Shown: piece by piece, positions 31,024 through 56,736 of the stretch
Layout: each line of letters opens with the position of its first letter
Numbering within the stretch: the stretch's first letter is position 1
From: Myxococcota bacterium
Lineage (GTDB): Bacteria > Myxococcota > JACRCW01
Assembly: GCA_040752415.1 (NCBI GenBank)
Contig: JBFMGU010000010.1
Span: 16,023-80,022 of the forward strand
Length of the DNA: 64,000 nt
Direction: 5' to 3'
Program-made: the position numbers and the translations under genes
The notes under the pieces: model-generated
What the model saw: only the letters and a program-made list of their open reading frames with translations
What the model was told of the DNA's origin: nothing
Database searches by the model: none

Positions 31024-31082
31024 TGGCGGCGAAGCGCCTGGAACGCTCTCTCCCCGCGGCCGCTGTGGGCTGATTTGAGACG

Positions 31083-31409: not shown

Positions 31410-31905
31410 ACACGCGATTATCACTCTCAGCTGACAACAGTAGATGACCGGCATCAGATCGCCCCACGAGGTAGTTGCGGACTTGGTCGGAGGGACAAGT
31501 GAAGAAGACACTTACCACTCCCGTCTGGAAAGGACTCCACGTTCCCACGGAAACACGATGACGCCCACCATCAGCGTCTTCGAAGGCCAACCGGACGTGG
31601 GACGACGTGATCGTCGCGGTTCCTTTCAACACCTCCGGTTCCGTCCCATCAGGTACAGAGTGTGTCACCACTGAAATGAGTTCATGGAACCCTTCCGGCA
31701 ATTCGGAAACTGTCCCAAGCGATTGTGGACGCGGTGACTGAGTCGTGGTGCCAAAGACAAGGTACGTTCCTTCCAAGTTCTCTTCGCACGCGAGAGGTTG
31801 TGGGCCCGCGTCGCCTTGACCTCCATCGGTACCAGCGTCGGCCTGAGACATCCCGGTGCAGGCCGAGGTCATGAGCAACAGCGCGAGGCCAACGTGTCTT
31901 CTCAT
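31390..31905 (-). CDS. Putative lipoprotein
   Basis: MRRHVGLALLLMTSAC lipobox; DAGTDGGQGDAG linker; ATGA overlap with the upstream gene. Confidence 0.65.
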   Translation of the reverse strand: MRRHVGLALLLMTSACTGMSQADAGTDGGQGDAGPQPLACEENLEGTYLVFGTTTQSPRPQSLGTVSELPEGFHELISVVTHSVPDGTEPEVLKGTATITSSHVRLAFEDADGGRHRVSVGTWSPFQTGVVSVFFTCPSDQVRNYLVGRSDAGHLLLSAESDNRVYEYAAQ

Positions 31906-33599: not shown

Positions 33600-33787
33600 G
33601 CGGGCGCCACAGGACATAGGTGCTCTCCTTTGAGGCGATGCCCTACCAGTGCTGTGGGTTGTGGTCAAGCTTCGACCGAAGCCCGAAGCTGCGCGCGCCC
33701 TGCGCAGGGCACGATGCGCGTCATTCGTTCCTAATAGTCAAGTAGGCGAAACGATTTCCAGGAGACCTCGGGCAAAGAGGTGATGCG

Positions 33788-36700: not shown

Positions 36701-39700
36701 ATCACACCGCCTCCCCACTCTCGGCCTGCTGCGGATCAAGCAGTGCTCAACGCCTTCCGGCATCGAGGACGGAATCACGTCTGGACCGGCCGCGGGCAAA
36801 GACGGAGCCGAGTCGGTGCTCAACGCCTTCCGGCATCGAGGACGGAATCACGGAGCCTTGCGCCGCATAGCGGACGATGCGAACGCAAGTGCTCAACGCC
36901 TTCCGGCATCGAGGACGGAATCACCGCCCACGACCGCGTTGCTGAAACCCTGTTGTCCAAAGTGCTCAACGCCTTCCGGCATCGAGGACGGAATCACATG
37001 GCCAGGTTGCTGCTCCCCACGACGGGGCACCAGTGCTCAACGCCTTCCGGCATCGAGGACGGAATCACGCGCGCGGCCGTCGTCGGCGGCAACCTGGGCG
37101 GCGGCGGGTGCTCAACGCCCTCCGGCATCGAGGACGGAATCACGGTCGCCCTCTGCTCTGGCGCGCCGCCGCGGAGTGGTGCTCAACGCCTTCCCGCATC
37201 GAGGACGGAATCACCGGGGAAATGTACCGCCCCGTCCACAGCTCCTGAACCATCACGTGCTCAACGCCTTCCGGCATCGAGGACGGAATCACCCAGTGCG
37301 CCCGCCCCGGCGCTGGCCAACGTCAACGTGTGCTCAACGCCTTCCGGCATCGAGGACGGAATCACGCGGATGGAGGGACTGAGCCGTGGCGACCCCGTCC
37401 CGTGCTCATCGCCTTCCGGCATCGAGGACGGAATCACTCCGGTTGCTGGCGCGTCGACCCGAGCAGCAACAAGGTGTGCTCAACGCCTTCCGGCATCGAG
37501 GACGGAATCACGGTTAGGCGGCGCGAGGCTGGCCGCGGTGCGGAGGCGGGTGCTCAACGCCTTCCGGCATCGAGGACGGAATCACGGCCCGCTCATTTCC
37601 ATCCTGGAGGAGGACAACTTGTGCTCAACGCCTTCCGGCATCGAGGACGGAATCACCGGGGATCGCCACCGCGGGACCGATGGGCATACGTGTGCTCAAC
37701 GCCTTCCGGCATCGAGGACGGAATCACCAAATGTTCAGTCCACCCGTCGTAACACCCATGCTGTGCTCAACGCCTTCCGGCATCGAGGACGGAATCACTG
37801 GCGCTGCTGGTGGTGGCGATGGTGGCCGCGGCGCGTGCTCAACGCCTTCCGGCATCGAGGACGGAATCACCCGCATCGCCATCCGGGACAAGCACAAAGA
37901 GATCGCGTGCTCAACGCCTTCCGGCATCGAGGACGGAATCACCAACCCGGAGTCGTCACCCGTCGTGGTGTCGCCGGGTGCTCAACGCCTTCCGGCATCG
38001 AGGACGGAATCACTTCCCGGTGCCCGACGAGGCCCGGCGCCGCTTCGGGCCCATGTGCTCAACGCCTTCCGGCATCGAGGACGGAATCACGCGCGTGCTG
38101 CTGGTCTGGGACCCTCAGCGGAAGTGGTGCTCAACGCCTTCCGGCATCGAGGACGGAATCACCACCGGCAGCAGCTTCCCGACGGGGTCCATTGTCTGGT
38201 GCTCAACGCCTTCCGGCATCGAGGACGGAATCACGCAACAGAGTGGTGCCACGGTGGTATGCGGCGTGTCCGTGCTCAACGCCTTCCGGCATCGAGGACG
38301 GAATCACCCGCCGCCGCCGAAGGCGGTTATCTTGAACAGGGGCGTGCTCAACGCCTTCCGGCATCGAGGACGGAATCACTCACCGCGTCCGGGCGCGGAG
38401 TTCACTGGCCGCCGCCTCGTGCTCAACGCCTTCCGTCATCGAGGACGGAATCACACGGCGCGTGGGTGGGTGGGGTCTGACGGAGCCACGTGCTCAACGC
38501 CTTCCGGCATCGAGGACGGAATCACACGCCGAAGCGCGCCAGAAGTGGAACGACCAACTGGTGCTCAACGCCTTCCGGCATCGAGGACGGAATCACACGC
38601 AACATACACATATAAGTAAACCGCACCTTAGGTGCTCAACGCCTTCCGGCATCGAGGACGGAATCACCACCTACGTGGACAGCGCCGGCAAGCCCTTCGC
38701 CGCGTGCTCAACGCCTTCCGGCATCGAGGACGGAATCACTGGTGCCGCTGATTGCCCTGTTGGGCGTCGTCAACGGCGTGGGGTGCCCAACGCCTTCCGG
38801 CATCGAGGACGGAATCACGCACCGGCCCTTGTGGCGTTGCGCTGGCCCAGTTCTGGTGCTCAACGCCTTCCGGCATCGAGGACGGAATCACCAATGACGG
38901 TGACGGTGCGTCCCGTGGAGAACTGAAGTGCTCAACGCCTTCCGGCATCGAGGACGGAATCACTCACAACAGCACCGGGACAGAGAGGAATAGCGCTGAT
39001 GGGTGCTCAACGCCTTCCGGCATCGAGGACGGAATCACGCTGTGGCGGTTGGGCAGTGGGCGGGCTGTCTTCCAGTGCTCAACGCCTTCCGGCATCGAGG
39101 ACGGAATCACCCGTGACGACGGCCAGCCTCATCTTGGTGGCCAGCTGTGCTCAACGCCTTCCGGCATCGAGGACGGAATCACCAGGCTTTCGCCTTGTCG
39201 AGCCAGAACTTCGGGTCGGTGTGCTCAACGCCTTCCGGCATCGAGGACGGAATCACACCAGCGGCCAGATCAAGGTGCTGTGGGAGCACGGTGTGCTCAA
39301 CGCCTTCCGGCATCGAGGACGGAATCACTGAAATGGATGGACCAGGTGCGGCCGCGCGTCGTGTGCTCAACGCCTTCCGGCATCGAGGACGGAATCACTC
39401 ACCAACGTTCCCGACGGCGGCGGGAGTGCGCAGCACAGGTGCTCAACGCCTTCCGGCATCGAGGACGGAATCACCGGGATCAGTCGGCGGGCTCCGAGGT
39501 TCACAGCACCCGGGTGCTCAACGCCTTCCGGCATCGAGGACGGAATCACAAGTAGCGGGCGGACTTGCTGAACAGGAACACGTACTGTGCTCAACGCCTT
39601 CCGGCATCGAGGACGGAATCACACGATGTTGCGAATCCACTCAGGACGGAGCGTGCGCGGTGCTCAACGCCTTCCGGCATCGAGGACGGAATCACTGGTC

Positions 39701-42700
39701 ACCAGGGCGTCGACCACCATGTTCATCGTGCTGTGCTCAACGCCTTCCGGCATCGAGGACGGAATCACCCTTGGGGGACTCCCCTATCGAGCCGGTGGGG
39801 GCGAGTGCTCAACGCCTTCCGGCATCGAGGACGGAATCACCAGGCGCCTCATTACCTGCTGGTCGCCACGCTCCTTGTGTGCTCAACGCCTTCCGGCATC
39901 GAGGACGGAATCACGACGAGAAGTTGCGCGCGTTCTGTAAAACGCTCGGGTGCTCAACGCCTTCCGGCATCGAGGACGGAATCACGCGCGGGGGCCGTAG
40001 AAGGTGGCTGTCGTCGTGATGTGCTCAACGCCTTCCGGCATCGAGGACGGAATCACGCAACGATCCGCAAACCACAGGTGCGCACGCTGGCGCGTGCTCA
40101 ACGCCTTCCGGCATCGAGGACGGAATCACCAGTCAGCGGCGGTCACTCACCCCGCCTCGCCCGCGTGCTCAACGCCTTCCGGCATCGAGGACGGAATCAC
40201 TGGAGATCGGCCTCTTGGCGCTTCAACTGCTCGATGTGCTCAACGCCTTCCGGCATCGAGGACGGAATCACTCACGAGACACCGACGGCGCACGGCGTGT
40301 CCACCACCGCGTGCTCAACGCCTTCCGGCATCGAGGACGGAATCACCCATCACGCCAGTGGAGGATGTGGACGCGGCGCGCGTGTGCTCAACGCCTTCCG
40401 GCATCGAGGACGGAATCACGGTTGGCGGCCGGCGAGTGAGGCGCAGCGGATCCCAGGTGCTCAACGCCTTCCGGCATCGAGGACGGAATCACCGCCAATC
40501 GCGACCGCGAGCACCAGCAGCGAAGCAAGGTGCTCAACGCCTTCCGGCATCGAGGACGGAATCACGCCGCGTTGGCGCGCCCATGCACCGAGGCACCGCA
40601 GCGTGCTCAACGCCTTCCGGCATCGAGGACGGAATCACGTCTTGCCGGACGCTTTGGCGAGCGCATAGCCGTCGTGTGGTGCTCAACGCCTTCCGGCATC
40701 GAGGACGGAATCACGTCATGCCCAGGCGCTTGGCACTGAGAATGATCTCGTGCTCAACGCCTTCCGGCATCGAGGACGGAATCACCGGGCGGTACTGTTT
40801 GCGGTTGACGTTGCCGCCCTGTGCTCAACGCCTTCCGGCATCGAGGACGGAATCACTGGAGACACCAGCGAGACACGCACACGCCCGCCGTTCAGTGCTC
40901 AACGCCTTCCGGCATCGAGGACGGAATCACCCCACGGAGCTACACTCCCCAACACGGATGGTTCACGTGCTCAACGCCTTCCGGCATCGAGGACGGAATC
41001 ACTCATTGGAATTCATGACGTCCTCACGCCGGCTCAAAGTGCTCAACGCCTTCCGGCATCGAGGACGGAATCACATGGATGGGCAAGGGTGGCGCCTTGG
41101 AGCAGGTGGAGTGCTCAACGCCTTCCGGCATCGAGGACGGAATCACTCAAGGCCGGCGTCGCGTTCAATGCCGTCGGGCTTCGCAAGTGCTCAACGCCTT
41201 CCGGCATCGAGGACGGAATCACACGCCGCCACGCTGCCCGAGCCGCCCCCGTAGAGCGGTGCTCAACGCCTTCCGGCATCGAGGACGGAATCACGACGCT
41301 GAGCCTGTACATCAACGGCATCCTGGTCTGTGCTCAACGCCTTCCGGCATCGAGGACGGAATCACTCAGCGGCCAGCCGCTTTCACAGCAGCCCGAGCGC
41401 GTGCGGTGCTCAACGCCTTCCGGCATCGAGGACGGAATCACGCATCCTCATGTCGCTCAACGCGTTCGATGCGAACGACTACGCGTGCTCAACGCCTTCC
41501 GGCATCGAGGACGGAATCACATACCTGGGACTGAAGCCGGTGATCCGCAACGAGGAGTGCTCAACGCCTTCCGGCATCGAGGACGGAATCACATGCACGC
41601 CAGCGAGCGGGACAGCATCTACTTCGAAGCGTGCTCAACGCCTTCCGGCATCGAGGACGGAATCACCGGCTGCATCCGCGGCTACCTGGGCTGTGCCGGC
41701 TTCCCGTGCTCAACGCCTTCCGGCATCGAGGACGGAATCACTGACGTGCTGAAGGATCTGGTGAATGGGCGCGGCCAGCCGTGCTCAACGCCTTCCGGCA
41801 TCGAGGACGGAATCACAAGCTGGACCCCTGGGCGGACGTCAAGGGCGCGGACGAGTGCTCAACGCCTTCCGGCATCGAGGACGGAATCACACGGTCCCCT
41901 GCGGCCCGCCGGATGACCGGAGCGCGTGTGCTCAACGCCTTCCGGCATCGAGGACGGAATCACAGCAGCAGGGACCCCACAACGGCCCCCAGGGCCATCA
42001 GGTGCTCAACGCCTTCCGGCATCGAGGACGGAATCACTCGTCGGCGCTGCAACCGAGGCGCAGCGCCAGCGCGTCGAGGTGCTCAACGCCTTCCGGCATC
42101 GAGGACGGAATCACACGGGCCAGACCATCTACAGCGGCGTTGCCACCGAGTGCTCAACGCCTTCCGGCATCGAGGACGGAATCACGCGGAGGTCTTCGAC
42201 AAGTATGTTGATGGCGACCGGTGCTCAACGCCTTCCGGCATCGAGGACGGAATCACACTGGCCTTCAGCTCCTCCAGCTTCCTGCCGTAGAGTGCTCAAC
42301 GCCTTCCGGCATCGAGGACGGAATCACCCTAACGTCGGCCGACACCACGGTGCAGGTGCCGCAGTTGTGCTCAACGCCTTCCGGCATCGAGGACGGAATC
42401 ACATCACCCACGCCGGGACCTGTACGCCGTGCCACTGATAGTGCTCAACGCCTTCCGGCATCGAGGACGGAATCACGGGATTGCGCCGAGGCGAAAATGA
42501 ACCTGCTGCGCGTGTGCTCAACGCCTTCCGGCATCGAGGACGGAATCACGGTGGAGCTCGGGCTCGCCGCGCCGTCGGGGAACCTGTGCTCAACGCCTTC
42601 CGGCATCGAGGACGGAATCACCAGGCGTCAGGCGGGGTCGGCGTAGCCGTGCGGTGGTGCTCAACGCCTTCCGGCATCGAGGACGGAATCACCAGGCGGA

Positions 42701-45390
42701 CAACCAGCACCCCAGACGACGCCCTCCCTGGTGCTCAACGCCTTCCGGCATCGAGGACGGAATCACATCGCGGTGGTATCCCAGCGCCCCGGAGGTCCCA
42801 CCGTGCTCAACGCCTTCCGGCATCGAGGACGGAATCACCGTCACGCCGCGTTGGCTCAGAGGAGGGCCAGCGCCCAGTGCTCAACGCCTTCCGGCATCGA
42901 GGACGGAATCACACAAACCGCCCATCTCCAGACGCCCGACAGTCGTTGCCCTGTGCTCAACGCCTTCCGGCATCGAGGACGGAATCACGGTACGGATCGT
43001 GGAGCGGGAGAATCCGCGACCGACGAGTGCTCAACGCCTTCCGGCATCGAGGACGGAATCACGGCGTAGCCGCGAACGTCGCCCATGACGGCGGCGACGT
43101 GCTCAACGCCTTCCGGCATCGAGGACGGAATCACGCCGTCCACGTACCGATCAGCCCCGCCCTGGGTAACGTGCTCAACGCCTTCCGGCATCGAGGACGG
43201 AATCACTCCAGCGAACAACGCGTCTCGTGTCAGCCATCGTCGTGTGCTCAACGCCTTCCGGCATCGAGGACGGAATCACGGCCGAGCTCCGCAACGAGAT
43301 GCGCTTCCGCGTTTGACCGTGCTCAACGCCTTCCGGCATCGAGGACGGAATCACTGGGCGGCGCGTGGACCGTGACGTCGCACGAGGACCTGCGTGCTCA
43401 ACGCCTTCCGGCATCGAGGACGGAATCACACACCGCCCCTGGGCGCGCGTTATCTATGCAAGCCGGTGCTCAACGCCTTCCGGCATCGAGGACGGAATCA
43501 CTTCGTGGGCGTTTTGGGGCTGCGTGCTCGTGCTCGTGCTGTGCTCAACGCCTTCCGGCATCGAGGACGGAATCACAGACGGCGCCCTCCCCTCTGCCTC
43601 TGCGTGCTCTGTCGTGCTCAACGCCTTCCGGCATCGAGGACGGAATCACGGGAGGCCAAGAGCGGCATGCTGGCGCGCCTGGCCCAACGGTGCTCAACGC
43701 CTTCCGGCATCGAGGACGGAATCACTGCTGACCGGCGCCAACCACGCGGGGAAGAGCAGGTGCTCAACGCCTTCCGGCATCGAGGACGGAATCACCTTGA
43801 GCGCCAGGTGCGCGTCCGTGTCCACCGGAAACTTGCGTGCTCAACGCCTTCCGGCATCGAGGACGGAATCACACCTGTACGCGCACAAGAAGGTGCCCGC
43901 GGGAGCGTGCTCAACGCCTTCCGGCATCGAGGACGGAATCACGGTGGAGCGCCGGACCGAAGCCTACCGCAGGCGGCTGTGCTCAACGCCTTCCGGCATC
44001 GAGGACGGAATCACCCAGCACCTTGTGGCCCTCGCCAACCTTGGCAACACTAGTGCTCAACGCCTTCCGGCATCGAGGACGGAATCACCAGGCATCCACT
44101 TCAACACTTTTTTCTACCTCCACGTGCTCAACGCCTTCCGGCATCGAGGACGGAATCACCCTTATGAATCTGATGAAGGTTACGGGCCATTAATTTTGTG
44201 CTCAACGCCTTCCGGCATCGAGGACGGAATCACCATTCTTGAATGCAACGATGTTGTTGGTCATCATAGTGTGCTCAACGCCTTCCGGCATCGAGGACGG
44301 AATCACACCGTGTCCGTAGGTCGCCAGCCCTGATCGAATGGGTGCTCAACGCCTTCCGGCATCGAGGACGGAATCACTAGGGATATTAAGGCCGTTACAC
44401 ACCTCTTCTTCTAGTGCTCAACGCCTTCCGGCATCGAGGACGGAATCACCGGGCGGATCGCTGTTCGGCCTGTATCCGTGCTCCTTGTGCTCAACGCCTT
44501 CCGGCATCGAGGACGGAATCACACGGAGACGTGTTGTTTGATAACTGCACCGGCATGAAGTGCTCAACGCCTTCCGGCATCGAGGACGGAATCACGCCAG
44601 CAGAACCAGCCAGAGCGCGCCGGAGAATCTGTGCTCAACGCCTTCCGGCATCGAGGACGGAATCACACGCCAGAGAAACACCCCGATGGACAACACAGGG
44701 ATGTGCTCAACGCCTTCCGGCATCGAGGACGGAATCACGGCTTCGGGCGGCGGAGCCGGCACCGCGGCAAGCAACGGTGCTCAACGCCTTCCGGCATCGA
44801 GGACGGAATCACGCGCCAGACTCTGATATAGTAGCACCGGCTCCAACGGTGCTCAACGCCTTCCGGCATCGAGGACGGAATCACCTGTTGGAGGACTTGG
44901 GCCGGGTTGATCTGGCGGGGTGCTCAACGCCTTCCGGCATCGAGGACGGAATCACCGGTGATGGTGAGCGCACCGCCAGCCTGGCCGTCAGGTGCTCAAC
45001 GCCTTCCGGCATCGAGGACGGAATCACCGGTGGGCAGTGTGCCGCCAGTCGGGATCAGCGCGTCGTGCTCAACGCCTTCCGGCATCGAGGACGGAATCAC
45101 TTCTTGCGACTGCGCTCTCGCACCTCCTCCACCTGCGCGTGCTCAACGCCTTCCGGCATCGAGGACGGAATCACGTGCCTGGCGTGTTTCAGAAGGCGCG
45201 CCTCGTGGTGTGCTCAACGCCTTCCGGCATCGAGGACGGAATCACTCGAGGACTCCGACGGCATTGACCTGCCGCACGGTGGATGTGCTCAACGCCTTCC
45301 GGCATCGAGGACGGAATCACTTCGTACGCCGGTTGATTTCGTATCCGCCTCGGGGTGCTCAACGCCTTCCGGCATCGAGGACGGAATCAC
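33788..45390 (-). CRISPR. CRISPR array of about 160 x 36-bp repeats with spacers of roughly 31-43 bp; leader at the right, degenerate trailer at the left
   Basis: Hand count of ~160 copies of GTGCTCAACGCCTTCCGGCATCGAGGACGGAATCAC. The leftmost six are mutated. The reverse complement ends in ...GTTGAGCAC, as in type I-B2 repeats, so transcription is inferred on the minus strand. Confidence 0.99.
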
Positions 45391-45643: not shown

Positions 45644-45940
45644 TCACGCCAGGATGAACGGCGGCGGGTCCTCATCCAGCCCGGCGAGGTCCTTGCCTCG
45701 CACGGTCACGCGACCGGCGCAACCCTCACACAGCCGGGCGACCATCAGCCGATCCTTTTCCTCGAGGATGCCAGCCAGCTCGAAGCGGAGCTGCTCCAGC
45801 TCCCTGGCGGTGCAGCGCACCCGGAAGACGGAGTACTGCACTGGCTTTCCCCATGCGGTCAGCTTCTTGTGAACTTGTCGCAGCGCCTTGTCGTTGGACA
45901 CGTCGTACATCACCAGGTGCCAGTGTCGCGGTTCCGCCAT
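45644..45940 (-). CDS. cas2: CRISPR-associated Cas2
   Basis: LVMYDVS...WGKPVQYSVF; 98 aa; next to the leader. Confidence 0.96.
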   Translation of the reverse strand: MAEPRHWHLVMYDVSNDKALRQVHKKLTAWGKPVQYSVFRVRCTARELEQLRFELAGILEEKDRLMVARLCEGCAGRVTVRGKDLAGLDEDPPPFILA

Positions 45941-45950
45941 GGTGTCCTCC

Positions 45951-47612
45951 TCATCGGATCCGGAACCGCGCGAACAGCCCCGGCTCTCCCGACCACTCCT
46001 TCTCCAACAGACGTACCTCCAGCTCCATCATGCGCTCGTAGGACAGCGCGTAGCCGATGGCGCTGTGCCGGTATTCCTCCTTCTTGCGTCGCTCATAGAC
46101 GCCAATGAGCTTCTTCCTGCCCTCCTCCGACAACCACACCTGCGGTCCCGTGACCGTGAAATCGGCTGCCGGGTCGAACGTGCGCCGGTTCACCGCCGCC
46201 ATGACCGCCATGTCCACCACCGGCACCCGGAAGAGCTCCATCAGGTCCAGCACCAGCGGCCAGGCCGCCGAGCGGGGCTGGTGCAGCACGCCGAAGGCCG
46301 GCTCCAGGCCCACGCGGAGGACCGCGCTGAAGATGTCGCGTTCCAGCAGCGCGTAGCCGAACGACAACAGCGCATTGAACCGGTCCCGCGGCGGCCGCTG
46401 CGACCTGCCCGCCGGCCGGAGCTCCTCACCCGCCTCCGGGCTCACCAGCACGCTCAGCGCGCCGAAGTACGCACGGGCCGCGAGGCCCTCGTTGCCCATC
46501 AGCGCGTCGCGGTCGGCGGCGCGCGCCAGCCCGGAGAGGCCGGAGCGCATGGTACGCAGGTGTTGATCCACCTGGGGGCGCAGCCCTCCGTCCCCGCGCG
46601 ACGCGCGCAGCACGTGGCGTAGCTGCATCTCCACCTTCGCGTGGAGCAGGCGCCGGGCGAGCGAGAGCGCGCGGTCATCATCCGTCAGTCCGCGGTACTG
46701 CCGGATGCGCCGCTGCACGCCGCCGCTGGGACCGCTGAAGGTCCCCAGCAGGCTCCCCGACATGGTGACCAGGTGGACCGGGATGCGCTCGTCGGCGCAG
46801 AGGCGCAGCGCCTGGGTGGTGATCTGCGCATACCCGTGCAGGGTGATGTCCCCGACCTCCCGCGCACCGACCTTGAGGGGCGTCTCGTCGGGCGCCACCA
46901 CGGTGAAGCCCTCTCCGCTGCGCGAGACCCGTGCCCCCTGGGTCAGCACGTGCAGCGAGCGCCGCTCCGAGTCCGCGGGGAACAGTCGCAGCGGCGTGGG
47001 CGTGGCGGCGTCCTCCGCCTGGGCCAACCGGACCTCCTCCGGCAGGCAGACCGGCGCCAGGGAGCACCGGACGCATTTCCGCTCGTCGGTGGTCACCGGC
47101 GGGCGCTCGGTGAAGCGCGCCAGCTCACGCGCGCGGCGGACCGCGAGGGCCACCTCGGTGCGGAGCACGTCGGTGATTGGGATGCGCACGGTGACGTTGT
47201 CGCGGTGGTAGCGGATGCGCGCCTCGGCCACCGGGCGACCCAGGTGCTCCTCCAGCAGCATGGCGTAGGCGGCGGCTTGCACGCGGTCGGCGTCCCAGGC
47301 GCCGGGCCCTCCGTCGGTGCGTCGGGCGCGGCCGCGCTTGTGCTCGACCGGGAAGACGGTCCCGTCGCGCTTGCGCAGCGCGTCCACCTTCCCGCGCATG
47401 CCCAGCCGGGCGGACTCCAGCGTTAGCTCGACGACCTCCGCGGGCTCGTCCAGCTCCGCGTGCAGCACGCGACCGGCCCAGACCGCCTCGTCGGCAACGC
47501 GGATCTCCTCGACCTCCTCCAGGAAGAACAGGCGCTCGCAGTAGAGCAGGGCGTGCAGCGCCATGACGCGCACAGTGGGGAGGCGCGCGTCTTCCAGGGC
47601 TTCCAGGGTCAT
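45951..47612 (-). CDS. cas1: Cas4-Cas1 fusion (Myxan type)
   Basis: N-terminal Cas4 (YCERL, KVD, VEHKRG, CVRCSLAPVC) followed by Cas1 (EGLAARAYF, RPPRDRFNALLSFGY, GVLH, LDLMELFR). Confidence 0.96.
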   Translation of the reverse strand: MTLEALEDARLPTVRVMALHALLYCERLFFLEEVEEIRVADEAVWAGRVLHAELDEPAEVVELTLESARLGMRGKVDALRKRDGTVFPVEHKRGRARRTDGGPGAWDADRVQAAAYAMLLEEHLGRPVAEARIRYHRDNVTVRIPITDVLRTEVALAVRRARELARFTERPPVTTDERKCVRCSLAPVCLPEEVRLAQAEDAATPTPLRLFPADSERRSLHVLTQGARVSRSGEGFTVVAPDETPLKVGAREVGDITLHGYAQITTQALRLCADERIPVHLVTMSGSLLGTFSGPSGGVQRRIRQYRGLTDDDRALSLARRLLHAKVEMQLRHVLRASRGDGGLRPQVDQHLRTMRSGLSGLARAADRDALMGNEGLAARAYFGALSVLVSPEAGEELRPAGRSQRPPRDRFNALLSFGYALLERDIFSAVLRVGLEPAFGVLHQPRSAAWPLVLDLMELFRVPVVDMAVMAAVNRRTFDPAADFTVTGPQVWLSEEGRKKLIGVYERRKKEEYRHSAIGYALSYERMMELEVRLLEKEWSGEPGLFARFRIR

Positions 47613-47648
47613 GGGAACCTCCTTGCGGGAGGCTGGCTTCGGAGCGTC

Positions 47649-48608
47649 TCAGCCTGTGTGAGACGGCGCCCGGTACGGAGACAGCGCAGTCTCCAGCTCC
47701 GCCCGCACCTGCTCACGGAAGAACGCGGGCTCCAGCGCCTCCGCGTTGCGGCCCCAGCGCAGGACCCAGTGCAGTGCCTCCATGGTGCCGGCCACGTGCG
47801 CCCGGACCACGACGGCACCGTCGGGCTGCGGAGCCAGGGTCTGGGTGTCGCTGAGGGGCCACTCGTGGATCAGTGGTGCCACCTGCGCGCGAATCCGCAC
47901 CGCCACCTCCACGGTGTCGCCCGACCAGATGCCCATGCTGTTGGCGAAGATCCGTTGCGGGTCGTAGTCGGGGCGCTGCGCGGCGGGCTCATCCAGGATC
48001 TCCGGCTGCTCGGCGCGGGCGGGCTTGAAGACGCGCCAGTCGTTCCGCTGCGTGTCGAAAGCCACCAGGTAGAGCTGATCCTCATGCAGGCGAAGCTCCT
48101 GCGGGTCAACCACGCGGCGCTCCGGGCTCCCGCCGGGCTTCCGGTACAGGAACGCGAGGCGGCGACGCTGGGCCACCGCGGTCTCCATGGCGCGGATGAC
48201 ATCCCCGGGAACCTGCGGGTGCGCGCTGGGCGCCAGCGTCACGGGCAACTCGGCCACGCGCGGCGGAGCCATGGCTGCCAGCAGGCCGTCGAGCTCGCGC
48301 AGGATCTCCGTGCCCTCCAGCGGCGTCATGACCTGGCGCAACATCAGGATCGCGGCCACCTGCATCGGCGTCGGGCGAAGCGGCGGTAAGCTCCATTCCA
48401 GCAGGTAGCGGGTCTCACCGTTCACCGTCTCGGTCCGGATGGGCACGCCCGCTTCCTCCAGGGTCTCGAGGTCGCGGTAGACGGTGGCGCGACTGGCGTT
48501 GCACCGCTCCACCAGCTGCTCCACGCGCAAGCCACGTTTCACGCCCTGAAGAGCGAGGACGTGGCCGAGCTGTCGGGTGAGCATCTCCTTGTTCTTCCAG
48601 CGGGCCAT
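47649..48608 (-). CDS. HTH-WYL-WCX transcriptional regulator
   Basis: HTH SRATVYRDLETL, YRKP...RVVDP, LYLVAFD..RNDWRVFKPAR, WVLRWG...LEP. Confidence 0.93.
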   Translation of the reverse strand: MARWKNKEMLTRQLGHVLALQGVKRGLRVEQLVERCNASRATVYRDLETLEEAGVPIRTETVNGETRYLLEWSLPPLRPTPMQVAAILMLRQVMTPLEGTEILRELDGLLAAMAPPRVAELPVTLAPSAHPQVPGDVIRAMETAVAQRRRLAFLYRKPGGSPERRVVDPQELRLHEDQLYLVAFDTQRNDWRVFKPARAEQPEILDEPAAQRPDYDPQRIFANSMGIWSGDTVEVAVRIRAQVAPLIHEWPLSDTQTLAPQPDGAVVVRAHVAGTMEALHWVLRWGRNAEALEPAFFREQVRAELETALSPYRAPSHTG

Positions 48609-49928: not shown

Positions 49929-50054
49929 GCGATTCTGTGTCTCCGCCGTCCCTTGCTGAGAGGTGGTTTTGCGACAATGCGTTGATTGTCTCTGTGTTTT
50001 CAGTGGGTTGGCGTGCCGTCCGTCCCGGATCCCCGAGTGGGTGGCAGATCAGGG

Positions 50055-50083
50055 TTGACACCTTGCGGGCTACTCCCTACTCA
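50055..50083 (+). promoter_or_regulatory. Putative sigma70 promoter for the CRISPR-like RNA and cas6 operon
   Basis: TTGACA (50055-50060), 17 bp, TACTCA (50078-50083); the -10 match is imperfect. Confidence 0.6.
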
Positions 50084-50194
50084 GTGTCAACATCGAATCG
50101 ACCGCACCGGTGCGGCGCAGTGTGGAGGAGTGGCTTCCAAACCCACCCCTCGGCCCCGCCGGCGCGGTTCGTCCGCGCCTCCAAAACGCGGCAC

Positions 50195-50326
50195 CAGATT
50201 CGTCCTTGATCGTCGCGCCGGCTCCCCAGCGGGGGGCGCGCGCGTGGCGTTGAGCACTTGACCCTGAGGAGGGAGTGACCCGGCCTCATGGTGCCGTCAT
50301 GGATGCCTTCGGGCGCTCCGTCGCAC
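50195..50326 (+). ncRNA. CRISPR-like regulatory RNA (CreR/CreA-type): pseudo-repeat, 30-nt spacer, pseudo-repeat
   Basis: Exact repeat 3' end GGCGTTGAGCAC at 50246-50257; spacer 50258-50287; degenerate repeat ATGGTGCCGTCATGGATGCCTTCGGGCG from 50288; the spacer matches 50090-50072 (minus strand) next to ATG. Confidence 0.85.
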
Positions 50327-50396
50327 TTTGGGTTGTCGCAGAAGAGCTGAGACGGCGACGGCGCACCGTGCGCCGCGCCGCAAGAAGGAGCTTGGA

Positions 50397-51026
50397 ATGA
50401 GCCAGGTTGAGGCCGAGGAGGTTGTGGACGTGGCGTTCCCCTTGAAGGGGAAGCGAGTTCCACTGGATCACGGTTACGCACTCTTTGGCGCGCTCAGCCG
50501 GGAGTTGCCAGCGTTGCATGAGATGCACGGCCTCGGCCTGCACGCCATCCGGGGCAAGATGGAGGAACGCGGAACGCTGACTCTGCGGACGGGGAGCAGT
50601 GTGACGCTCCGGGTGCCGACGAGCCAGCTTGGTTTGTTCATGACGTTGGTGGGCAAGACCCTGGAGCTGGACGGTCACCGCATCACGCTTCTGCCTCCTC
50701 GAGTCTTCCCCTTGCGCCCCGTGGTGGCGCTGAAGGCGCATTTGGTGACCATCAAGAATCACAAAGAACGAGCGACTTTTATCGAAGCGGTGAAGGCGCA
50801 ACTCGCTGCGGTGCCGGGGTTGCAGCAAGATCCCGCAACCATCGACGTGGTCGTGCCGGAAGAGCCTCGCGGTCGCCGGATTCTCCGTGTTGCGGAGCAC
50901 AAGGTCGTCGGTTTTGTCGTGGGGCTTGATGGTCTCGGGGCGGATGCGTCGCTGGCCGTTCAGCGTCACGGCCTGGGTGGGCGCCGACACATGGGTGCGG
51001 GCGTGTTTGTTCCCGCGCGAGCGTGA
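50397..51026 (+). CDS. cas6: Cas6 (Myxan type)
   Basis: VDVAFPLKG...DHGYALFGALS; C-terminal G-rich loop GLGGRRHMGAGVF; AAGGAG RBS. Confidence 0.95.
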   Translation: MSQVEAEEVVDVAFPLKGKRVPLDHGYALFGALSRELPALHEMHGLGLHAIRGKMEERGTLTLRTGSSVTLRVPTSQLGLFMTLVGKTLELDGHRITLLPPRVFPLRPVVALKAHLVTIKNHKERATFIEAVKAQLAAVPGLQQDPATIDVVVPEEPRGRRILRVAEHKVVGFVVGLDGLGADASLAVQRHGLGGRRHMGAGVFVPARA

Positions 51027-53410
51027 AGCGGAAAGAAATGCGCATGCCCCAACATCTTCCCGCCAAAAGTCCTCGCCGCGACGGCGAGCTGCTCTCCCTG
51101 GACCGTCACTGTGCGGAGACCGAAGAAGCCGCGTCACGCCTCTTTCGCCCGCAGGGCGAGTGGAGTCGTTGGGGCAACGCATGGTGCCGGTTCTTCCGCA
51201 TCCCGGTCCCGCTGCGCGACCGCTGGCTGTTGAACTTGCGGGTGGCGTGTCTGGCGCACGACCTCGGCAAGGCGAATGCGGACTTCGTGAAGGCAGTGAT
51301 CGAGAGGGGGTTTCACGAACAGCCCATCAGGCATGAGCACCTGAGCGCGCTGTTCCTTCACCTGCCGGCGGTGCGGGCGTGGCTGCGTGGGAACACCGGG
51401 CTCGACGTCGATGTCATCACCGCCGCTGTCTTGAGCCACCACCTCAAGGCCCACGACGGGACCGGTGAGCACCCCCCTTGGCAATGGGGCAACTTCCAGG
51501 GGTTAGTGCAGCAGGTTGTCCTGCACTTCTCGCATCCCGACGTGCAGCGAATCCTGGACAGGATGGCGGAGGTGGCTGGTCTGCCACGGCTCACGTTCCA
51601 ACCGCCCGCGCGTTACACCGCGAAGGAATGGGAAAAGGAACGGAGCGACGGCAAGCGCGCCGCTCACGACCTTCGCAAGGCTGCGTGCGGCACCTCCGAG
51701 AGCGTCGAAGCAAGGGACCCCGCGCGGCAGTCGCTCCTGCTGGCAACCAAGGCGGGAGTGATCGTGGCGGATGCCGTGTCGAGCGGGCTGTTCCGCGAGG
51801 GCCATTCCCTGGCGGACTGGATTGCACGGCATGTCCACCGGCCACCGCTAGCCGCCGAAGATCTTGAACGGGAGATCCTGGCGCCGCGGATTCGCGAGCT
51901 GGAGGGACAGCGCAAGGCAAAATTCAGCTATCACCGGTTCCAGGACCTGGCCGCGGAGCAGCCCGGCCGTGCGTTGCTCATGGCGGCGTGCGGCGCCGGC
52001 AAGTCCATGGCGGCGTATCGGTGGGCCCAGTCGCAGTTGGCGCACCAGCCCCTTGGCTCGGTCCTGTTCCTCTACCCCACGCGCGGCACCGCCACCGAGG
52101 GCTTCCGCGACTACGTGGGCCACGCTCCGGAGACGGAAGCGACGCTCCTGCACGGGAGCAGCGCGTACGAGCTGAGGGGCATCGCGGAGAACCCAAGCGA
52201 AGCGACGCAGGGCAAGAATTACTCCCTGGAAGAAGCCAGCGCCCGGCTGTTCGCGTTGGGGCTGTGGGGACGCCGGTACTTCAGCGCCACGGTCGACCAG
52301 TTCATCTCGTTCATGGAGCACCGCTACGAGAGCCTATGTCTCCTCCCGCTACTGGCCGACTCGGCGGTGATCATCGACGAGGTGCACAGCTTCAGTGAGA
52401 GCATGCTGCGGAGTCTCCTGGCTTTCCTGAAGCGCTTTGATGTGCCGGTGCTGTGCATGACGGCCACGCTCCTTCCGCAGCGACGCGAGCAGTTGCAGGC
52501 GGCTGGGCTCAAGGTGTTTCCGGACGGGGCGGAGCGCGCGGAGCTCCAGGACCTTGAGGTCGCGGAGGACCACCCCCGCTACTCGCTGGAGCCGGTGGAG
52601 GGTGAGGAGGAAGCGTTGCAGCGCGCGGTGGCTGCCTTCGAGGCAGGAAACCGTGTGCTCTGGGTGGTGAATACGGTGCGTCGCTGCCAGGCGCTTGCAA
52701 GAAAGCTGGACGCGCGTCTTGGCAGGATTCCGCTTTGCTACCACAGCCGGTTCAAGCTGGATGACCGCAAGCGGATGCACGGTGAGACGGTCAGCGCGTT
52801 CAAGCAGCGGGCAACGCCGCAGGTGGCGGTGACCACCCAGGTCTGTGAGATGAGCCTGGACCTGGATGCGGACGTGCTCATCACGGAATGGGCGCCACCT
52901 TCGTCACTGGTGCAGCGCTTTGGGCGGTGCAACCGCAAGCTGGATGGGAAGAAGGACGGCTTCACGGGGCGACTCATCACCTACAAACCAGAAAGCCACC
53001 GCCCCTACGAGAAGGAGGATCTGGCGGACGCTGCAGCGTTCCTCGCGGAGCTTCCAGGGAGCACACTCAGCCAGAAGAAGTTGGCGGAGAAGCTTGATGC
53101 GCTCCCGCGGCGCGGTGGGACGCCCTCAACCGCGACGGCCTTCCTCACGGGCGGGTATTTCGCGACACCGGGGCATTTCCGCGAAGAAGACGAATTCGGG
53201 GCCAACGCGGTGTTGCGCACCGAAGCGGCGGAGGTCGTGGCTGCTCTGGAGCGCGGAAAGCCGATTGATGGATACCTGATCAACGTCCCCAGGAAGGACT
53301 GTCTCCCGGATGCGGAGCGGCCTGCGGGGCTGCCGCCGCATGTGCACGTCGTGGATGAGAACCGGTACACGCGTGAGCTGGGATTCCTGGTGGACAAGGA
53401 GACGGCATGA
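51023..53410 (+). CDS. cas3: Cas3 HD nuclease-helicase
   Basis: HDLGKA, SHH, Walker A CGAGKS, IIDEVH, MTAT, QRFGRCNR. Confidence 0.97.
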   Translation: MKRKEMRMPQHLPAKSPRRDGELLSLDRHCAETEEAASRLFRPQGEWSRWGNAWCRFFRIPVPLRDRWLLNLRVACLAHDLGKANADFVKAVIERGFHEQPIRHEHLSALFLHLPAVRAWLRGNTGLDVDVITAAVLSHHLKAHDGTGEHPPWQWGNFQGLVQQVVLHFSHPDVQRILDRMAEVAGLPRLTFQPPARYTAKEWEKERSDGKRAAHDLRKAACGTSESVEARDPARQSLLLATKAGVIVADAVSSGLFREGHSLADWIARHVHRPPLAAEDLEREILAPRIRELEGQRKAKFSYHRFQDLAAEQPGRALLMAACGAGKSMAAYRWAQSQLAHQPLGSVLFLYPTRGTATEGFRDYVGHAPETEATLLHGSSAYELRGIAENPSEATQGKNYSLEEASARLFALGLWGRRYFSATVDQFISFMEHRYESLCLLPLLADSAVIIDEVHSFSESMLRSLLAFLKRFDVPVLCMTATLLPQRREQLQAAGLKVFPDGAERAELQDLEVAEDHPRYSLEPVEGEEEALQRAVAAFEAGNRVLWVVNTVRRCQALARKLDARLGRIPLCYHSRFKLDDRKRMHGETVSAFKQRATPQVAVTTQVCEMSLDLDADVLITEWAPPSSLVQRFGRCNRKLDGKKDGFTGRLITYKPESHRPYEKEDLADAAAFLAELPGSTLSQKKLAEKLDALPRRGGTPSTATAFLTGGYFATPGHFREEDEFGANAVLRTEAAEVVAALERGKPIDGYLINVPRKDCLPDAERPAGLPPHVHVVDENRYTRELGFLVDKETA

Positions 53411-55104
53411 TGGCTGGCACAAAGACCAAGAAGGCGTCGGCGAAGAAGAAGGAGCCAGCGCGGAAGTCCCAAGAGTCCGCCATCCCGGATGAGCAGACGG
53501 TGCGGTGGAACCTGGAGGACCTGCCTACCTCGCAGCACCGCGCCGGACTGGCCGGGCTCGTGATGATGGTGCAATGGCTCAACCGCCAGGGGACGCACAA
53601 GGGGGCTTGCGTCGTCGAGAAGCTGGACGCGCATGGCGCGACCTTCCGGTTCGACCGCGCGGGATTCCAGTCGTTGATGGATCACACGTATGAGGCCAGT
53701 GAGGAGGAACAAGAGCGTGAGCAACCGCTGAAGGACAAGAAGAAGCAGATCATTGCACCGCTGCGTGAGGTGACGCGACGGGTGACGGACGCCAAGGGGA
53801 AGGAGCGGGAAAAGACCTTCTACGTGTATCCCGTGACGGTGCCGCATGGGGCGGTGGTTACCGAGTGGGAACCTCCCTCGGAAGGCGGCAAGGCCCTGTG
53901 GCTGAAGATGTGGCGGGATCTGCTTTGGGGCGTGTTGCGCGGCGTTCCAGCGACCCGAGCGCCCTACGAACAGCGCGCGGAACGAAAGCCCATGGCGGAC
54001 GCCGCAGCTCTCTATGACGAGATTGCGCGAGATCCGGTTGTGCCCCTTCCCAGCACGTACTTCCTGGGCGCGCAGGCGAAGACCGCCGAAGACGTGGGAT
54101 TCAAGGACCAGGCGCGCCGGCAGTTCGTGCTGCACTTCTGGCCTTTCGCCATTCGCATCTACACGCCAATCACGGTGGACCGGGAGGGTAAGGAGGAGTT
54201 CACTGGCTTTGCCGTGGCGTTTCCGGACGTGAGCGACTTACGGGACTACTGCGAGACGTTCCCCTCCCTCATGCGCGGGCGCGGTGTCGAGGCGGCTGGT
54301 TATCGGCCGCGGGAGTCCAAGGTGGACCTGGCGCTCGAAGCCGGCGTGGACTTGATGTGGCGGCTTCGGCGCCTGGTTCCGGCTCAGCTGGAAGCGTCAC
54401 AAGGGCTGACGGCGTTTTCGCTGCGCGGCGTGGACGTGGTGCACGTGGAGAAGCAGGGGAACAACGTTCGCGTTTGGAGCTCGACCCGCGTGGAGCCCAA
54501 GCCAGGCATGTTGAACGAGTACGGGAGCGTGAAAGGCGTCTTTTGGAGCGCCGACTTCCGACGCCAGCGGCTGGTGAACCTCGTGGCGGGGCGCGACTGG
54601 CACGCCGGCTTCTTGGGCATTTTCAAGACGGCGCCCTGGGAGCGGTTCCTCGGGGACAAGCAGTTTTTTGGACATGATGCTCGCGCGGCCTTCAAGGCCG
54701 TGACGGGCGCGGAGGCGGAGATGGATGAGGGCAAGGAGACGGAGGCCGCGTTGGAGACCATCGTCCTCAAGGTGGTGCGCGGCTACCTGGCCAGGAAGAT
54801 GGAAGCGAAGCACGGCGTGAAGACCACGAAGGAGGGAGACAAGTGGGTCTGGGTCACCGCGGAGGGGAAGCCCGCGCCGGACCAGGAAGGCCTGAGCAAG
54901 AGGCGCCACAAGCTGGCCGTGGACGCATTCCTGGGTTGTCGCTCCCGTACCGGTGCGGATTTCCAAGACTACTTCACCGGGACGCTTTGCTCCGTCCCGC
55001 AATACCTGGGCGAGACGGGATACCGGACCCTCTCCACGGCACTGCTGCGCAACGACGACACCGTTCGAACCCTGACCATGCTGGCGCTGAGCGCCTCGGC
55101 GTGA
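53407..55104 (+). CDS. cmx8: Cascade large subunit Cas8 (Cmx8/DevT-like)
   Basis: LPTSQHRAGLAGL, WRDLLWGVLRGVPATR, FVLHFWP; lies between cas3 and cas7. Confidence 0.9.
   Translation: MMAGTKTKKASAKKKEPARKSQESAIPDEQTVRWNLEDLPTSQHRAGLAGLVMMVQWLNRQGTHKGACVVEKLDAHGATFRFDRAGFQSLMDHTYEASEEEQEREQPLKDKKKQIIAPLREVTRRVTDAKGKEREKTFYVYPVTVPHGAVVTEWEPPSEGGKALWLKMWRDLLWGVLRGVPATRAPYEQRAERKPMADAAALYDEIARDPVVPLPSTYFLGAQAKTAEDVGFKDQARRQFVLHFWPFAIRIYTPITVDREGKEEFTGFAVAFPDVSDLRDYCETFPSLMRGRGVEAAGYRPRESKVDLALEAGVDLMWRLRRLVPAQLEASQGLTAFSLRGVDVVHVEKQGNNVRVWSSTRVEPKPGMLNEYGSVKGVFWSADFRRQRLVNLVAGRDWHAGFLGIFKTAPWERFLGDKQFFGHDARAAFKAVTGAEAEMDEGKETEAALETIVLKVVRGYLARKMEAKHGVKTTKEGDKWVWVTAEGKPAPDQEGLSKRRHKLAVDAFLGCRSRTGADFQDYFTGTLCSVPQYLGETGYRTLSTALLRNDDTVRTLTMLALSASA
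54721..55104 (+). CDS. cas11: Probable internally translated Cas11 small subunit (127 aa)
   Basis: In-frame ATG at 54721 preceded by GGAGGCGGAG; helical C-terminal domain AFLGCRSR...FQDYFTGTLCSVPQ. Confidence 0.7.
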   Translation: MDEGKETEAALETIVLKVVRGYLARKMEAKHGVKTTKEGDKWVWVTAEGKPAPDQEGLSKRRHKLAVDAFLGCRSRTGADFQDYFTGTLCSVPQYLGETGYRTLSTALLRNDDTVRTLTMLALSASA

Positions 55105-55114
55105 GGAAACCACC

Positions 55115-56029
55115 ATGACGACTGACAAGAAGAAGCTGAACCTGTTTGGAACCGTCCTGACCTACGCCGGCCCCAGCAGCAACTACCGGGGCGAGAGCGA
55201 GGAGAACCGCACGGTGATCCAGCGGATCACCCGCGAGAACAAGGAGCACGCGGTGGTGAGCCCGGAGGCGATGCGCAACGCGCTCCGAGAGACGTTGGCC
55301 ACCTACGGCCTACCGATGAACCGGACCCGGCTGCACCAGGAAGACCAGCTGGCGGTGAAGTTCCACGACTTCCCGGACGGCTCAAAGTATGCGGATGACT
55401 TCCTCTTCGGGTTCCTGGTGGCGGACGGCAAAGAGTTGAGGAAGAAAAAGGGCGATGACGCCGAGGTCAAGCGCGACAGCATCCTCCGCATGAACCTCGC
55501 GGTGGCGCTGCAGCCCTATCGGTTCAACGCCACGTTCCACCAGTCGCCCAAGAACGTCGACAGTCCCTTCCAGAACGCTGGCAGCTCCGCGTTGCTGCAC
55601 CGCGAGGTCTCGGACACGGCGTTCCAGTACCCCTTCGCTCTCTCGATGGCGGACTGCCACGCCCACAAGGAAGGTCCCCGCTGGGCGGGTCACCTGCTGC
55701 GCGCCATTGGTGAGCTCAACAACGTGGCCGGCGGTCACGCACGGAGCTACTTCGAGTTCGCTCCGCGCAGTGTGGTCGTCCGTCTCACGCCGCGGCTGGT
55801 GGCCGGGTTCAAGACGTACGGGTTTGAGCCGGATGGCAGCTTCCCGGAGCTGAGTCGCATCAACGGGAGTGACATGCCCGGCAACGAGTTCTGGCTGGGC
55901 GGTGAGCTGGTCCGGAAGATGGACGCGAAGCGGCGCGAAGAGCTGAAGGCCGCGGGAGTGCACATGGAGGACAACCCGCAGACGCTGCTGGAGAAGGTGG
56001 CGCAGGCCGCGGGGTTGGTGGCCCAATGA
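55115..56029 (+). CDS. cas7: Cas7 (DevR)
   Basis: NYRGESEENRTVIQ, SPEAMRNALRE, YADDFLFG, VAGGHARSYFEFAP. Confidence 0.93.
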   Translation: MTTDKKKLNLFGTVLTYAGPSSNYRGESEENRTVIQRITRENKEHAVVSPEAMRNALRETLATYGLPMNRTRLHQEDQLAVKFHDFPDGSKYADDFLFGFLVADGKELRKKKGDDAEVKRDSILRMNLAVALQPYRFNATFHQSPKNVDSPFQNAGSSALLHREVSDTAFQYPFALSMADCHAHKEGPRWAGHLLRAIGELNNVAGGHARSYFEFAPRSVVVRLTPRLVAGFKTYGFEPDGSFPELSRINGSDMPGNEFWLGGELVRKMDAKRREELKAAGVHMEDNPQTLLEKVAQAAGLVAQ

Positions 56030-56736
56030 GCACCCTGTGGTTGCGCGTGCGCGCCCCGTTTGCCGCGTACCGCTGGATGCAGGCGGGCGTGTGGCGCGCC
56101 ACCAGTCCGGTGATGCCCCACAGCGCGGCGTGGGGATTGGTGCTGAACCTGGCGGGCGTGGAGACGCGACTCAAAACGGATGACGTCACCACGCTCGTCG
56201 ACCCCCAAGCCCCATCGCTGCGTGTCGCGGTTGGAGAGGTGGCGGTGGGGGAGCAACGCATGGCGGCGGGACGGACAAGCTTGTACCAGCAACTGCACTC
56301 GTATCCCGTGGGCAATTCCGGCGCGGAGTTGGCGGAGCGCACGTTCGGGGCGAAGTACTGGATTGCGCCGACTCGCCGTGAACTCCTAGTGGAGCTCGAC
56401 TGCATCCTCGGCGTCCAGTCGGATTCCCAGACGTTGCTGGATAACGTGGTGAAGGGACTGAATGGCACCCTCGACGTGAAGCGTTACGGCTTGCCGTTCG
56501 CGGGCGACAACAACCTCCTGCTGGACCGCGTGGACGTCCTGCCCGAGCCGCCGCCTGCGTTCTGGTACGAGGTTATGTCCGAGGATTCACCCGCTTCTGA
56601 AGGCTCGTGCCGGCTCACCGTCTCGATAGACCGGGCGGATAGCTCGCGCACAGTGACCCGCCTCTTCGCGCCGACGGGGCCTCATGCTCAGCCGCCCGAG
56701 CCCGCTTGGGTGGACACGGGACCGTTAGCCGCTTGA
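56026..56736 (+). CDS. cas5: Cas5 (DevS)
   Basis: LRVRAPFAAYR, PHSAAWGLVLNLAG, YQQLHSYPVG, RYGLPFAGDNN. Confidence 0.93.
   Translation: MSTLWLRVRAPFAAYRWMQAGVWRATSPVMPHSAAWGLVLNLAGVETRLKTDDVTTLVDPQAPSLRVAVGEVAVGEQRMAAGRTSLYQQLHSYPVGNSGAELAERTFGAKYWIAPTRRELLVELDCILGVQSDSQTLLDNVVKGLNGTLDVKRYGLPFAGDNNLLLDRVDVLPEPPPAFWYEVMSEDSPASEGSCRLTVSIDRADSSRTVTRLFAPTGPHAQPPEPAWVDTGPLAA

Follow-up and report, generated by a model that had tools for sequence, protein, structure and literature searches.

A candidate CRISPR-like guide in the leader of a myxobacterial type I-MYXAN effector operon, with a predicted role in autorepression

Can a type I CRISPR effector complex be turned into the repressor of its own genes by a guide hidden in front of them? 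The question is raised by a 64,000-nucleotide stretch of DNA from a Myxococcota genome (hereafter the window), in which an earlier, sequence-only reading had pointed to a degenerate CRISPR-like unit ahead of cas6 whose spacer resembles the presumed promoter region of the cas operon. Systems of this kind are already known: autorepression by CreR RNAs has been shown for types I-B, I-E and V-A, where it is relieved by crRNA load and Cas inhibition (10.1101/2023.03.10.532045), and mini-arrays upstream of type I-B cas6 that target the cas6 promoter were described by Shmakov et al. 2023 (PMC10120712). The string 'Myxococc' has no occurrence in the text and two supplementary files of the latter paper, and this material names no I-MYXAN example. 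The evidence presented here supports the element in the window as an added I-MYXAN case of this known kind.

A complete I-MYXAN locus in two divergent halves

A single type I-MYXAN CRISPR-Cas locus, complete and split into two divergent halves (Table 1), lies in the window, which comes from an 11-Mb metagenome-assembled genome of 520 contigs, 96.8% complete. Its assignment to I-MYXAN (Dev-type, I-B2) is given by the presence of a Cmx6 Cas6, a Cmx8 Cas8, a DevR-type Cas7, a DevS-type Cas5, Cas3 and a Cas4-Cas1 fusion; matches to TIGR02807, TIGR04413 and TIGR03983 exceed their cut-offs, and those to TIGR02585 and TIGR02586 fall slightly under. Exact repeats make up 148 of the 159 in the array, which are separated by spacers of 34-43 nt. 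In crRNA sense, that is, on the minus strand, the repeat reads GTGATTCCGTCCTCGATGCCGGAAGGCGTTGAGCAC, ending in GGCGTTGAGCAC; it alone scored in an Rfam search, below threshold. The roughly 700 nt ahead of cas6 contain no convincing gene.

Table 1. Features of the I-MYXAN locus and of the predicted guide and target (window coordinates)
Feature	Position	Strand	Basis and remarks
Candidate -35, TTGACA	50055..50060	+	Predicted from sequence; perfect hexamer
Weak candidate -10, TACTCA	50078..50083	+	Predicted from sequence, weak; 2/6 to TATAAT, 17 nt after -35
Protospacer, guide positions 1-25	50066..50090	-	Alignment and genome-wide scan; mismatches 6, 12, 20, 21
5'-ATG PAM of target	50091..50093	-	Sequence; ATG at every predicted target in 9 loci
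psiR1, small G+C hairpin, then exact 12-nt repeat 3' end	50238..50257	+	Sequence, predicted fold, repeat alignment
Spacer-like guide, TTGACCCTGAGGAGGGAGTGACCCGGCCTC	50258..50287	+	30 nt, up to 33 nt depending on psiR2 start
psiR2, degenerate repeat	50288..50326	+	24/36 identical plus 3-nt insertion; hairpin with UUCG loop
cas6 (Cmx6), first effector operon gene	50397..51026	+	TIGR02807, 176 bits (cut-off 98.85)
cas3 (HD nuclease and helicase)	51023..53410	+	TIGR01587 and TIGR01596
cas8, Cmx8 type	53407..55104	+	TIGR04413, 534.6 bits
cas7 (Cst2/DevR type)	55115..56029	+	TIGR02585, 67.1 bits, just below cut-off 72.75
cas5 (Cmx5/DevS type)	56026..56736	+	TIGR02586, 109.8 bits, just below cut-off 111.5
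CRISPR array, 159 repeats	30914..45390	-	Leader ~45391-45640
cas2	45644..45940	-	Divergent adaptation operon
cas4/cas1 fusion	45951..47612	-	Divergent adaptation operon
WYL regulator	47649..48608	-	Heads adaptation operon (total span 45644..48608)

A degenerate mini-CRISPR upstream of cas6

Lying 71-151 nt upstream of cas6 and in the same orientation, two repeat-like sequences from the locus's own repeat (12/12 and 24/36 identical) enclose a spacer-like stretch, which is the anatomy of a mini-CRISPR; the array itself is 5 kb off on the opposite strand. The first, psiR1, carries GGCGTTGAGCAC at 50246-50257 of the plus strand, identical to the last 12 nt of the array repeat in crRNA sense, and within it sits the presumed 8-nt 5' handle TTGAGCAC. 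Every letter and coordinate that the sequence-only reading had quoted for this exact repeat end and the spacer after it proved correct. The match of psiR1 to the repeat is confined to these 12 nt, and its 4-bp hairpin (50238-50250) is a prediction; the 12-mer is not rare, occurring alone at 19 places in the genome, for the most part apparently within genes, and by itself it is weak evidence.

The second repeat, psiR2, had been described as degenerate but with its stem kept, and it does retain a hairpin at the repeat's homologous place, in which two stem pairs have both partners replaced (A-U in one and G-C in the other, where the repeat has C-G); its 24/36 identity is a hand count on a pairwise alignment, and the stem changes come from a comparison of two predicted folds. 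The guide between the two is shorter than the array spacers (30-33 nt versus 34-43 nt). The 371-nt region examined matches once in its own genome; being single-copy, the region is therefore not a repeated mobile element. A search with the same stretch against 40 relatives matched nothing real.

Such a unit could be an inert relic, either a decayed array or a self-acquired spacer beside cas6 that was disarmed by mutation and has no present function. Arrays do occur at this position, as in one relative (L055) where a full array, oriented alike, ends 481 nt ahead of cas6, and the shrinkage of psiR1 to 12 nt fits decay. The hairpin of psiR2, kept through compensating changes, does not.

A single ATG-flanked candidate target upstream of the guide

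From 50093 the minus strand reads ATG-TTGACACTGAGTAGGGAGTAGCCCG. The guide TTGACCCTGAGGAGGGAGTGACCCGGCCTC mismatches this sequence at positions 6, 12, 20, 21 and 26-30 (identity 21/30), so that the pairing proposed earlier, a match at every position from 1 to 19 apart from 6 and 12, resuming at 22-25, directly behind an ATG, is borne out letter by letter. In Cascade every sixth guide base is flipped out, and positions 6 and 12 accordingly do not pair; the chance that two mismatches among 19 positions both fall at multiples of six is 3/171 (hand arithmetic). This pattern speaks against a relic: disarming should hit the seed first, whereas the first 19 positions are intact bar the two that do not pair.

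The pair stands out against the rest of the genome. An inverted-repeat search detected it unprompted (25 nt, 84% complementary), and the next-best seed-type match on either strand of the 64-kb window extends over 8 nt versus 19 for the target. Across the 11-Mb genome (22 million positions, both strands), the target is the only ATG-flanked match to guide positions 1-5 and 7-11; 15 further sites match these positions with other PAMs, none of them above 19/30 identities. As a background, 299,997 random genomic positions were examined: 865 lay within about 800 nt of a 15/15 masked match, mostly true repeats, and 48 had a match of at least 13/15 plus ATG. The guide/target match is more than chance.

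A guide that works might nevertheless have its main job elsewhere, at a distant site or an RNA, with the promoter-proximal match secondary; short seeds suffice in known cases such as CreA, a point also made in Shmakov et al. (PMC10120712). Yet the genome offers no other ATG-flanked 10/10 seed site, and the 15 sites with other PAMs do not extend. With the genome 96.8% complete in 520 contigs, a target site may have been missed; even so, we rate a different main job as very improbable. A search of viral contigs for copies of the guide gave a single match to an 18-base pattern, dismissed as chance because the contig lacks GGCG and diverges past the seed, and none to the Myxococcus-type pattern.

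The target region as a candidate promoter

The sequence-only reading had placed the target over the predicted -10 box and start region. The target does span TACTCA, but this -10 is weak, with two of six consensus positions, and a consensus promoter scan of 49600-50500 called no promoter. The target site may coincide with the operon promoter; if the real start lies further upstream, it would still act as a roadblock. The guide pairs with the operon's non-template strand. A sigma-54 promoter near 50040 (TGGCAG..TTGA) was considered and rejected by eye, its spacing being wrong. Some 200-300 nt upstream of the candidate promoter, at 49760-49897, there is a 44-nt tandem direct repeat in two copies, 70% alike, with a partial third; it may hold activator binding sites.

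Between target and mini-array lies a single ORF of 47 aa (50110-50253); inspection by eye shows no ribosome-binding site for it, and it encodes no hydrophobic helix. A DevI homologue was sought in both the window and the genome and not found, nor does the window contain a DevI-like or other small toxin gene. With no toxin-like gene under the guide's control in the window, the arrangement is therefore that of the plain CreR form.

By construction, the two arms (50066-50090 and 50258-50282) form an inverted repeat, and a nested palindrome, TTGACAC...GTGTCAA, is present at 50055-50061 and 50085-50091, so that either could instead be the operator of a protein, such as the WYL protein encoded in the locus, or pair within the leader RNA. 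Relatives do have another palindrome (GTCTCAC..GTGAGAC) immediately before cas6, in many cases after a WYL-like gene. An operator, however, would leave unexplained why one arm starts exactly after a repeat handle and is followed by a repeat-like hairpin, and why the other has an ATG beside it and mismatches at 6 and 12. RNA structure fares no better: the upstream arm would be outside the RNA if transcription starts near 50090, and the fold of 50240-50330 has no excess stability (z = 0.11). We consider this explanation improbable, and a protein operator may coexist with the guide.

Within the leader, complementarity would allow two further pairings: the 3' portion of psiR2, 50312-50324, with 50355-50367 (a span of 50312-50367 in the window), and 50108-50124 with 50364-50380. 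Alternative folds of this kind could form at the expense of the Cas6 hairpin or hide the ribosome-binding site of cas6.

A model for guide-directed autorepression

Mini-CRISPR anatomy, a unique ATG target, mismatches at 6 and 12, recurrence, and covariation in two locus pairs all support the reading of this element as a guide with its target. On this sequence evidence, we think it probable that the mini-array guide lets Cascade repress its own effector operon in the manner of CreR. The region 50238-50326 would be a degenerate mini-CRISPR in the 5' leader of cas6-cas3-cmx8-cas7-cas5, co-transcribed with the operon and cut by Cas6 at the two repeat-like hairpins. As psiR1 has only 12 nt of repeat, cutting on the 5' side rests on its predicted 4-bp hairpin. 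The product would be a crRNA-like RNA with a normal 5' handle and a guide of 30-33 nt.

Cascade loaded with this RNA would find the ATG site at 50066-50093, about 165 bp upstream, just behind TTGACA and over the probable -10 and start. Since both seed mismatches are at flipped-out bases (6 and 12), pairing would continue without interruption through position 19 and then fail toward the PAM-distal end. Such partial pairing should hold Cascade firmly on the site yet stop short of the complete R-loop needed to license Cas3, leaving Cascade to block RNA polymerase with no cutting; the match of 19-25 nt is long for the CreR class, and Cas3 cleavage is therefore also possible. Cascade synthesis, and the guide too, would thereby come under negative feedback. 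About 158 array crRNAs would compete for the same proteins, so that free Cascade would set the level of repression, and repression would ease when array crRNAs or inhibitors tie up Cascade, a feature that the model borrows from CreR.

The guide and target design recurs in other cmx6-type loci

We compared the window with three sets of loci: 40 regions of up to 20 kb from the phylum (401 genomes, of which 38 have a cas6 match), 10 cmx6-type loci from metagenome contigs, and the best 80 of 133 relatives from named species. Effector genes adjoin cas6 in 24 of the 40 phylum regions, 12 belonging to the Myxococcus 'dev' clade and 12 to the window's clade (four partial); the other 16 have cas6 with an array only.

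A PAM-agnostic scan required a motif resembling the repeat end and, after it, a guide whose 15 masked positions match a site close by; among 25 effector-linked cmx6 loci of the phylum it found six matches of at least 14/15 beside such a motif. Five have ATG (the window, L034, L038, L044 and L045); the sixth, in L070, was set aside for its poor motif (8/12) and a PAM of CCC. Among the best 80 of the 133 named loci, the top three targets (at least 13/15) all have ATG: they are in a Bacillota metagenome-assembled genome (L156), in one from a Gloeomargaritaceae cyanobacterium (L178), and in L192, which is the same place as L045. A strict scan, with positions 1-5 and 7-11 exact at 16 motif sites in 83 loci, gave four targets, namely the window's, one in Oscillatoria L167 and two in Oscillatoria L166. 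ATG flanks 4/4; a control of 16,600 random positions gave 545 hits, 8 of them with ATG.

The guide/target layout is thus present in eight further loci from three phyla: four of the Myxococcus clade, two Oscillatoria, one other cyanobacterial metagenome-assembled genome and one from Bacillota. The guides of different locus groups are unrelated in sequence; the ATG is always there, upstream of a cmx6-type cas6. Covariation of spacer and target in related loci, proposed earlier as a check, is seen in two pairs, guide and target changing jointly at positions 7, 8 and 11 between L034 and L045 and at positions 1, 4 and 7 between L166 and L167. For the window's own guide no comparable pair was found: the 371-nt region had no real match among 40 relatives, and none of the 10 metagenome loci (Cas6 at most 51% identical) has the element. 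A design that recurs with unrelated guides and covaries is, we conclude, under selection in the I-MYXAN subtype.

The element's distribution is nonetheless patchy. It is missing from the other 11 loci of the window's clade and from the 10 metagenome loci, and the window is therefore a single instance in its lineage; 8 of the 12 dev-clade loci are also without it. In the closest relative (L071/L114, Cas6 70% identical) all that we found was a remnant, ACGTTGAGCGC; the 20 kb searched contained no ATG-flanked target, as might be expected of a relic. Recurrence of the same ATG design in unrelated loci, with covariation, is hard to reconcile with one, and overall we regard an inert relic as unlikely. 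The Cascade-guiding reading remains the one that we prefer.

Two Oscillatoria loci differ in where the target lies: in L166 and L167 it is within the first cas6 codons, where the ATG of the PAM reads in frame as Met, at codon 9 of the longest ORF, and L166 has a second ATG-flanked target 380 nt upstream.

Separately, the palindrome GTCTCAC-N4-6-GTGAGAC stands 20-60 nt upstream of cas6 in many loci of the window's clade, namely L071/L114, L072, L074, L077, L079, L080, L082 and L083. It is followed by a CCCCGTAGGCT-like sequence, often has a WYL-like gene upstream, and is absent from the window; it looks like an alternative, protein-operated control of the effector operon.

ATG as a likely PAM

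That ATG would be the PAM of I-B2 systems had been stated as established. It is documented for I-B2 CAST Cascades (10.1101/2021.10.18.464778), evidence that concerns CASTs and not the window's own system. Within the loci compared here, ATG stands beside all predicted targets in 9 loci, versus 8 of 545 control hits, and these targets belong to four phylogenetically separate locus groups. Protospacers gave no independent reading of the PAM: 156 array spacers searched against their own genome returned short chance matches only, the window's array and two Myxococcus-clade arrays had no match in 50,697 phage records, and for the window's array against the 401 phylum genomes, array-to-array matches swamped any protospacer signal. 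We take the recurrence of ATG as indirect evidence that it behaves as the PAM across the I-MYXAN subtype.

A possible counterpart in the Myxococcus dev operon

The window's genome and the Myxococcus-type genomes belong to one phylum. The window shares the CRISPR subtype family of DevTRS (Cmx6, with DevR/DevS-type Cas7 and Cas5), but its Cas6 is only about 44% identical to that of the dev clade, its Cmx8 and Cas5 found no match there (tblastn, E 1e-8), its guide and target sequences are unrelated to those of the dev loci, and its target is on the opposite strand.

In the four dev-clade loci with the element (L034, L038, L044 and L045), the order is probable promoter, ATG-flanked target, small ORF, mini-array, cas6. 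The first repeat end of the dev mini-array reads GGTGTTGAGCAA; the second repeat has decayed strongly in L044 but can be made out in the other three loci. The small ORF of L034 (2177-2299, plus strand) is of devI type: it encodes 40 aa identical to MXAN_7266 (M. xanthus DK 1622), a protein whose cluster is represented by an entry named DevI. The mini-array target in this locus, some 20 nt past the likely -10, takes in the ribosome-binding region of devI. In L038, L044 and L045, which have counterpart devI-type ORFs, the PAM ATG is in frame with the ORF.

Autoregulation by DevTRS (Cas8, Cas7 and Cas5) is described as keeping DevI from blocking sporulation, and deletion of devT, devR or devS as raising the dev transcript about 10-fold (10.1101/2023.07.26.550624). 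How this autoregulation works is called unknown in a 2021 review, according to which no array spacer matches the target (PMC8616872); Koonin and Makarova 2022 cite the 2017 dev paper for 'a distinct antisense RNA'. We lean, with some reserve, towards the guide circuit as this missing mechanism: DevT, DevR and DevS, together with the mini-array RNA, would repress Pdev. DevTRS autoregulation in M. xanthus is reported not to need Cas6 and Cas3 activity (PMC8616872), and the dispensability of Cas6 argues against a guide in dev, unless the second Cas6 of M. xanthus, 66% identical (PMC6061681), substitutes for it.

If a guide does act there, devI would be a small protein gene between a Cascade-repressed promoter and its guide, as in the CreTA/CrePA layout, and an apparent guard of a CRISPR system would have been turned into a sporulation timer; the window would then be the bare form, a guide without an inhibitor gene, in a distant myxobacterial lineage. 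Mini-array and target together provide a specific, testable hypothesis for the repression by DevT/DevR/DevS that holds down the sporulation inhibitor DevI. The literature searched, the primary 2007, 2015 and 2017 dev papers aside, makes no link between a mini-array and dev autoregulation, in agreement with the statement in the sequence-only reading that it knew of no description in a Dev-type system, the key 2015 and 2017 papers again excepted.

Relation to known guide-based regulators

As in CreR, the window has a degenerate mini-CRISPR in a cas locus, with a guide partly complementary to a predicted cas promoter region beside a likely PAM, and the expected autorepression would likewise sense crRNA load and Cas inhibition (10.1101/2023.03.10.532045). 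It differs from the CreR systems of that report in its subtype (I-MYXAN, with Cmx6 and Cmx8), in its place in the operon's 5' leader upstream of cas6 and not before cas8, in a psiR1 cut down to 12 nt, and in a longer match (19-25 nt); the window's element is known from sequence alone. With the mini-arrays of Shmakov et al. (PMC10120712) it shares the neighbourhood of cas6, a predicted target in the cas6 promoter region, a seed beside a likely PAM and a basis in comparative genomics, but in their examples from Clostridium and Fusobacterium the target lies between mini-array and cas6, whereas in the window it lies upstream and on the other strand.

CreTA (reviewed in PMC12737573) and CrePA (10.1101/2024.01.05.574328) pair a Cascade-repressed toxin with a crRNA-like antitoxin. 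The guide logic of the window is similar, and the Myxococcus-clade loci are closer still, having a target, a small protein gene (devI) and a mini-array in this layout. Unlike CreTA and CrePA, the window has no candidate for a protein toxin, an RNA toxin being possible, and DevI, by the published description, inhibits sporulation rather than killing (10.1101/2023.07.26.550624).

If the model holds, RNA-guided Cas autorepression would extend to the I-MYXAN subtype, with the window as a clean case in which the seed mismatches fall exactly at the two non-pairing positions. A class 2 parallel is tracr-L, which Workman et al. in 2021 reportedly found to autorepress the S. pyogenes cas9 operon. There too a naturally occurring, partly complementary guide makes the effector repress the promoter from which it is expressed; unlike the window's system, tracr-L serves a single protein and is a long tracrRNA form, with no mini-array.

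Other features of the locus

The WYL regulator has an HTH-WYL-WCX architecture, and the gene order on its side of the locus is WYL, cas4/cas1, cas2, leader, array; the window's locus may be under both protein-based (WYL) and RNA-guided control. The array leader contains a repeat-like 25-mer (45505-45529, plus strand), antisense to the array, which consists of the repeat's first 10 and last 6 nt with the hairpin missing; a genome search found no target for the sequence after it. The array's old end is interrupted (30914-34102), degenerate repeats at 30914 and 30988 being 2.8 kb from the remaining array, and in the 2.8-kb interruption lies a gene for an M23 peptidase with a Dickkopf-type cysteine-rich domain (31902-33668, minus strand). 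Finally, three genes stand 3' of cas5 (56894-58618, plus strand), where Myxococcus loci have cas4, cas1 and cas2: they encode a DUF6036 nucleotidyltransferase-like protein (a weak match), a GNAT acetyltransferase and, in a 100-aa ORF, a product that falls in no known family.
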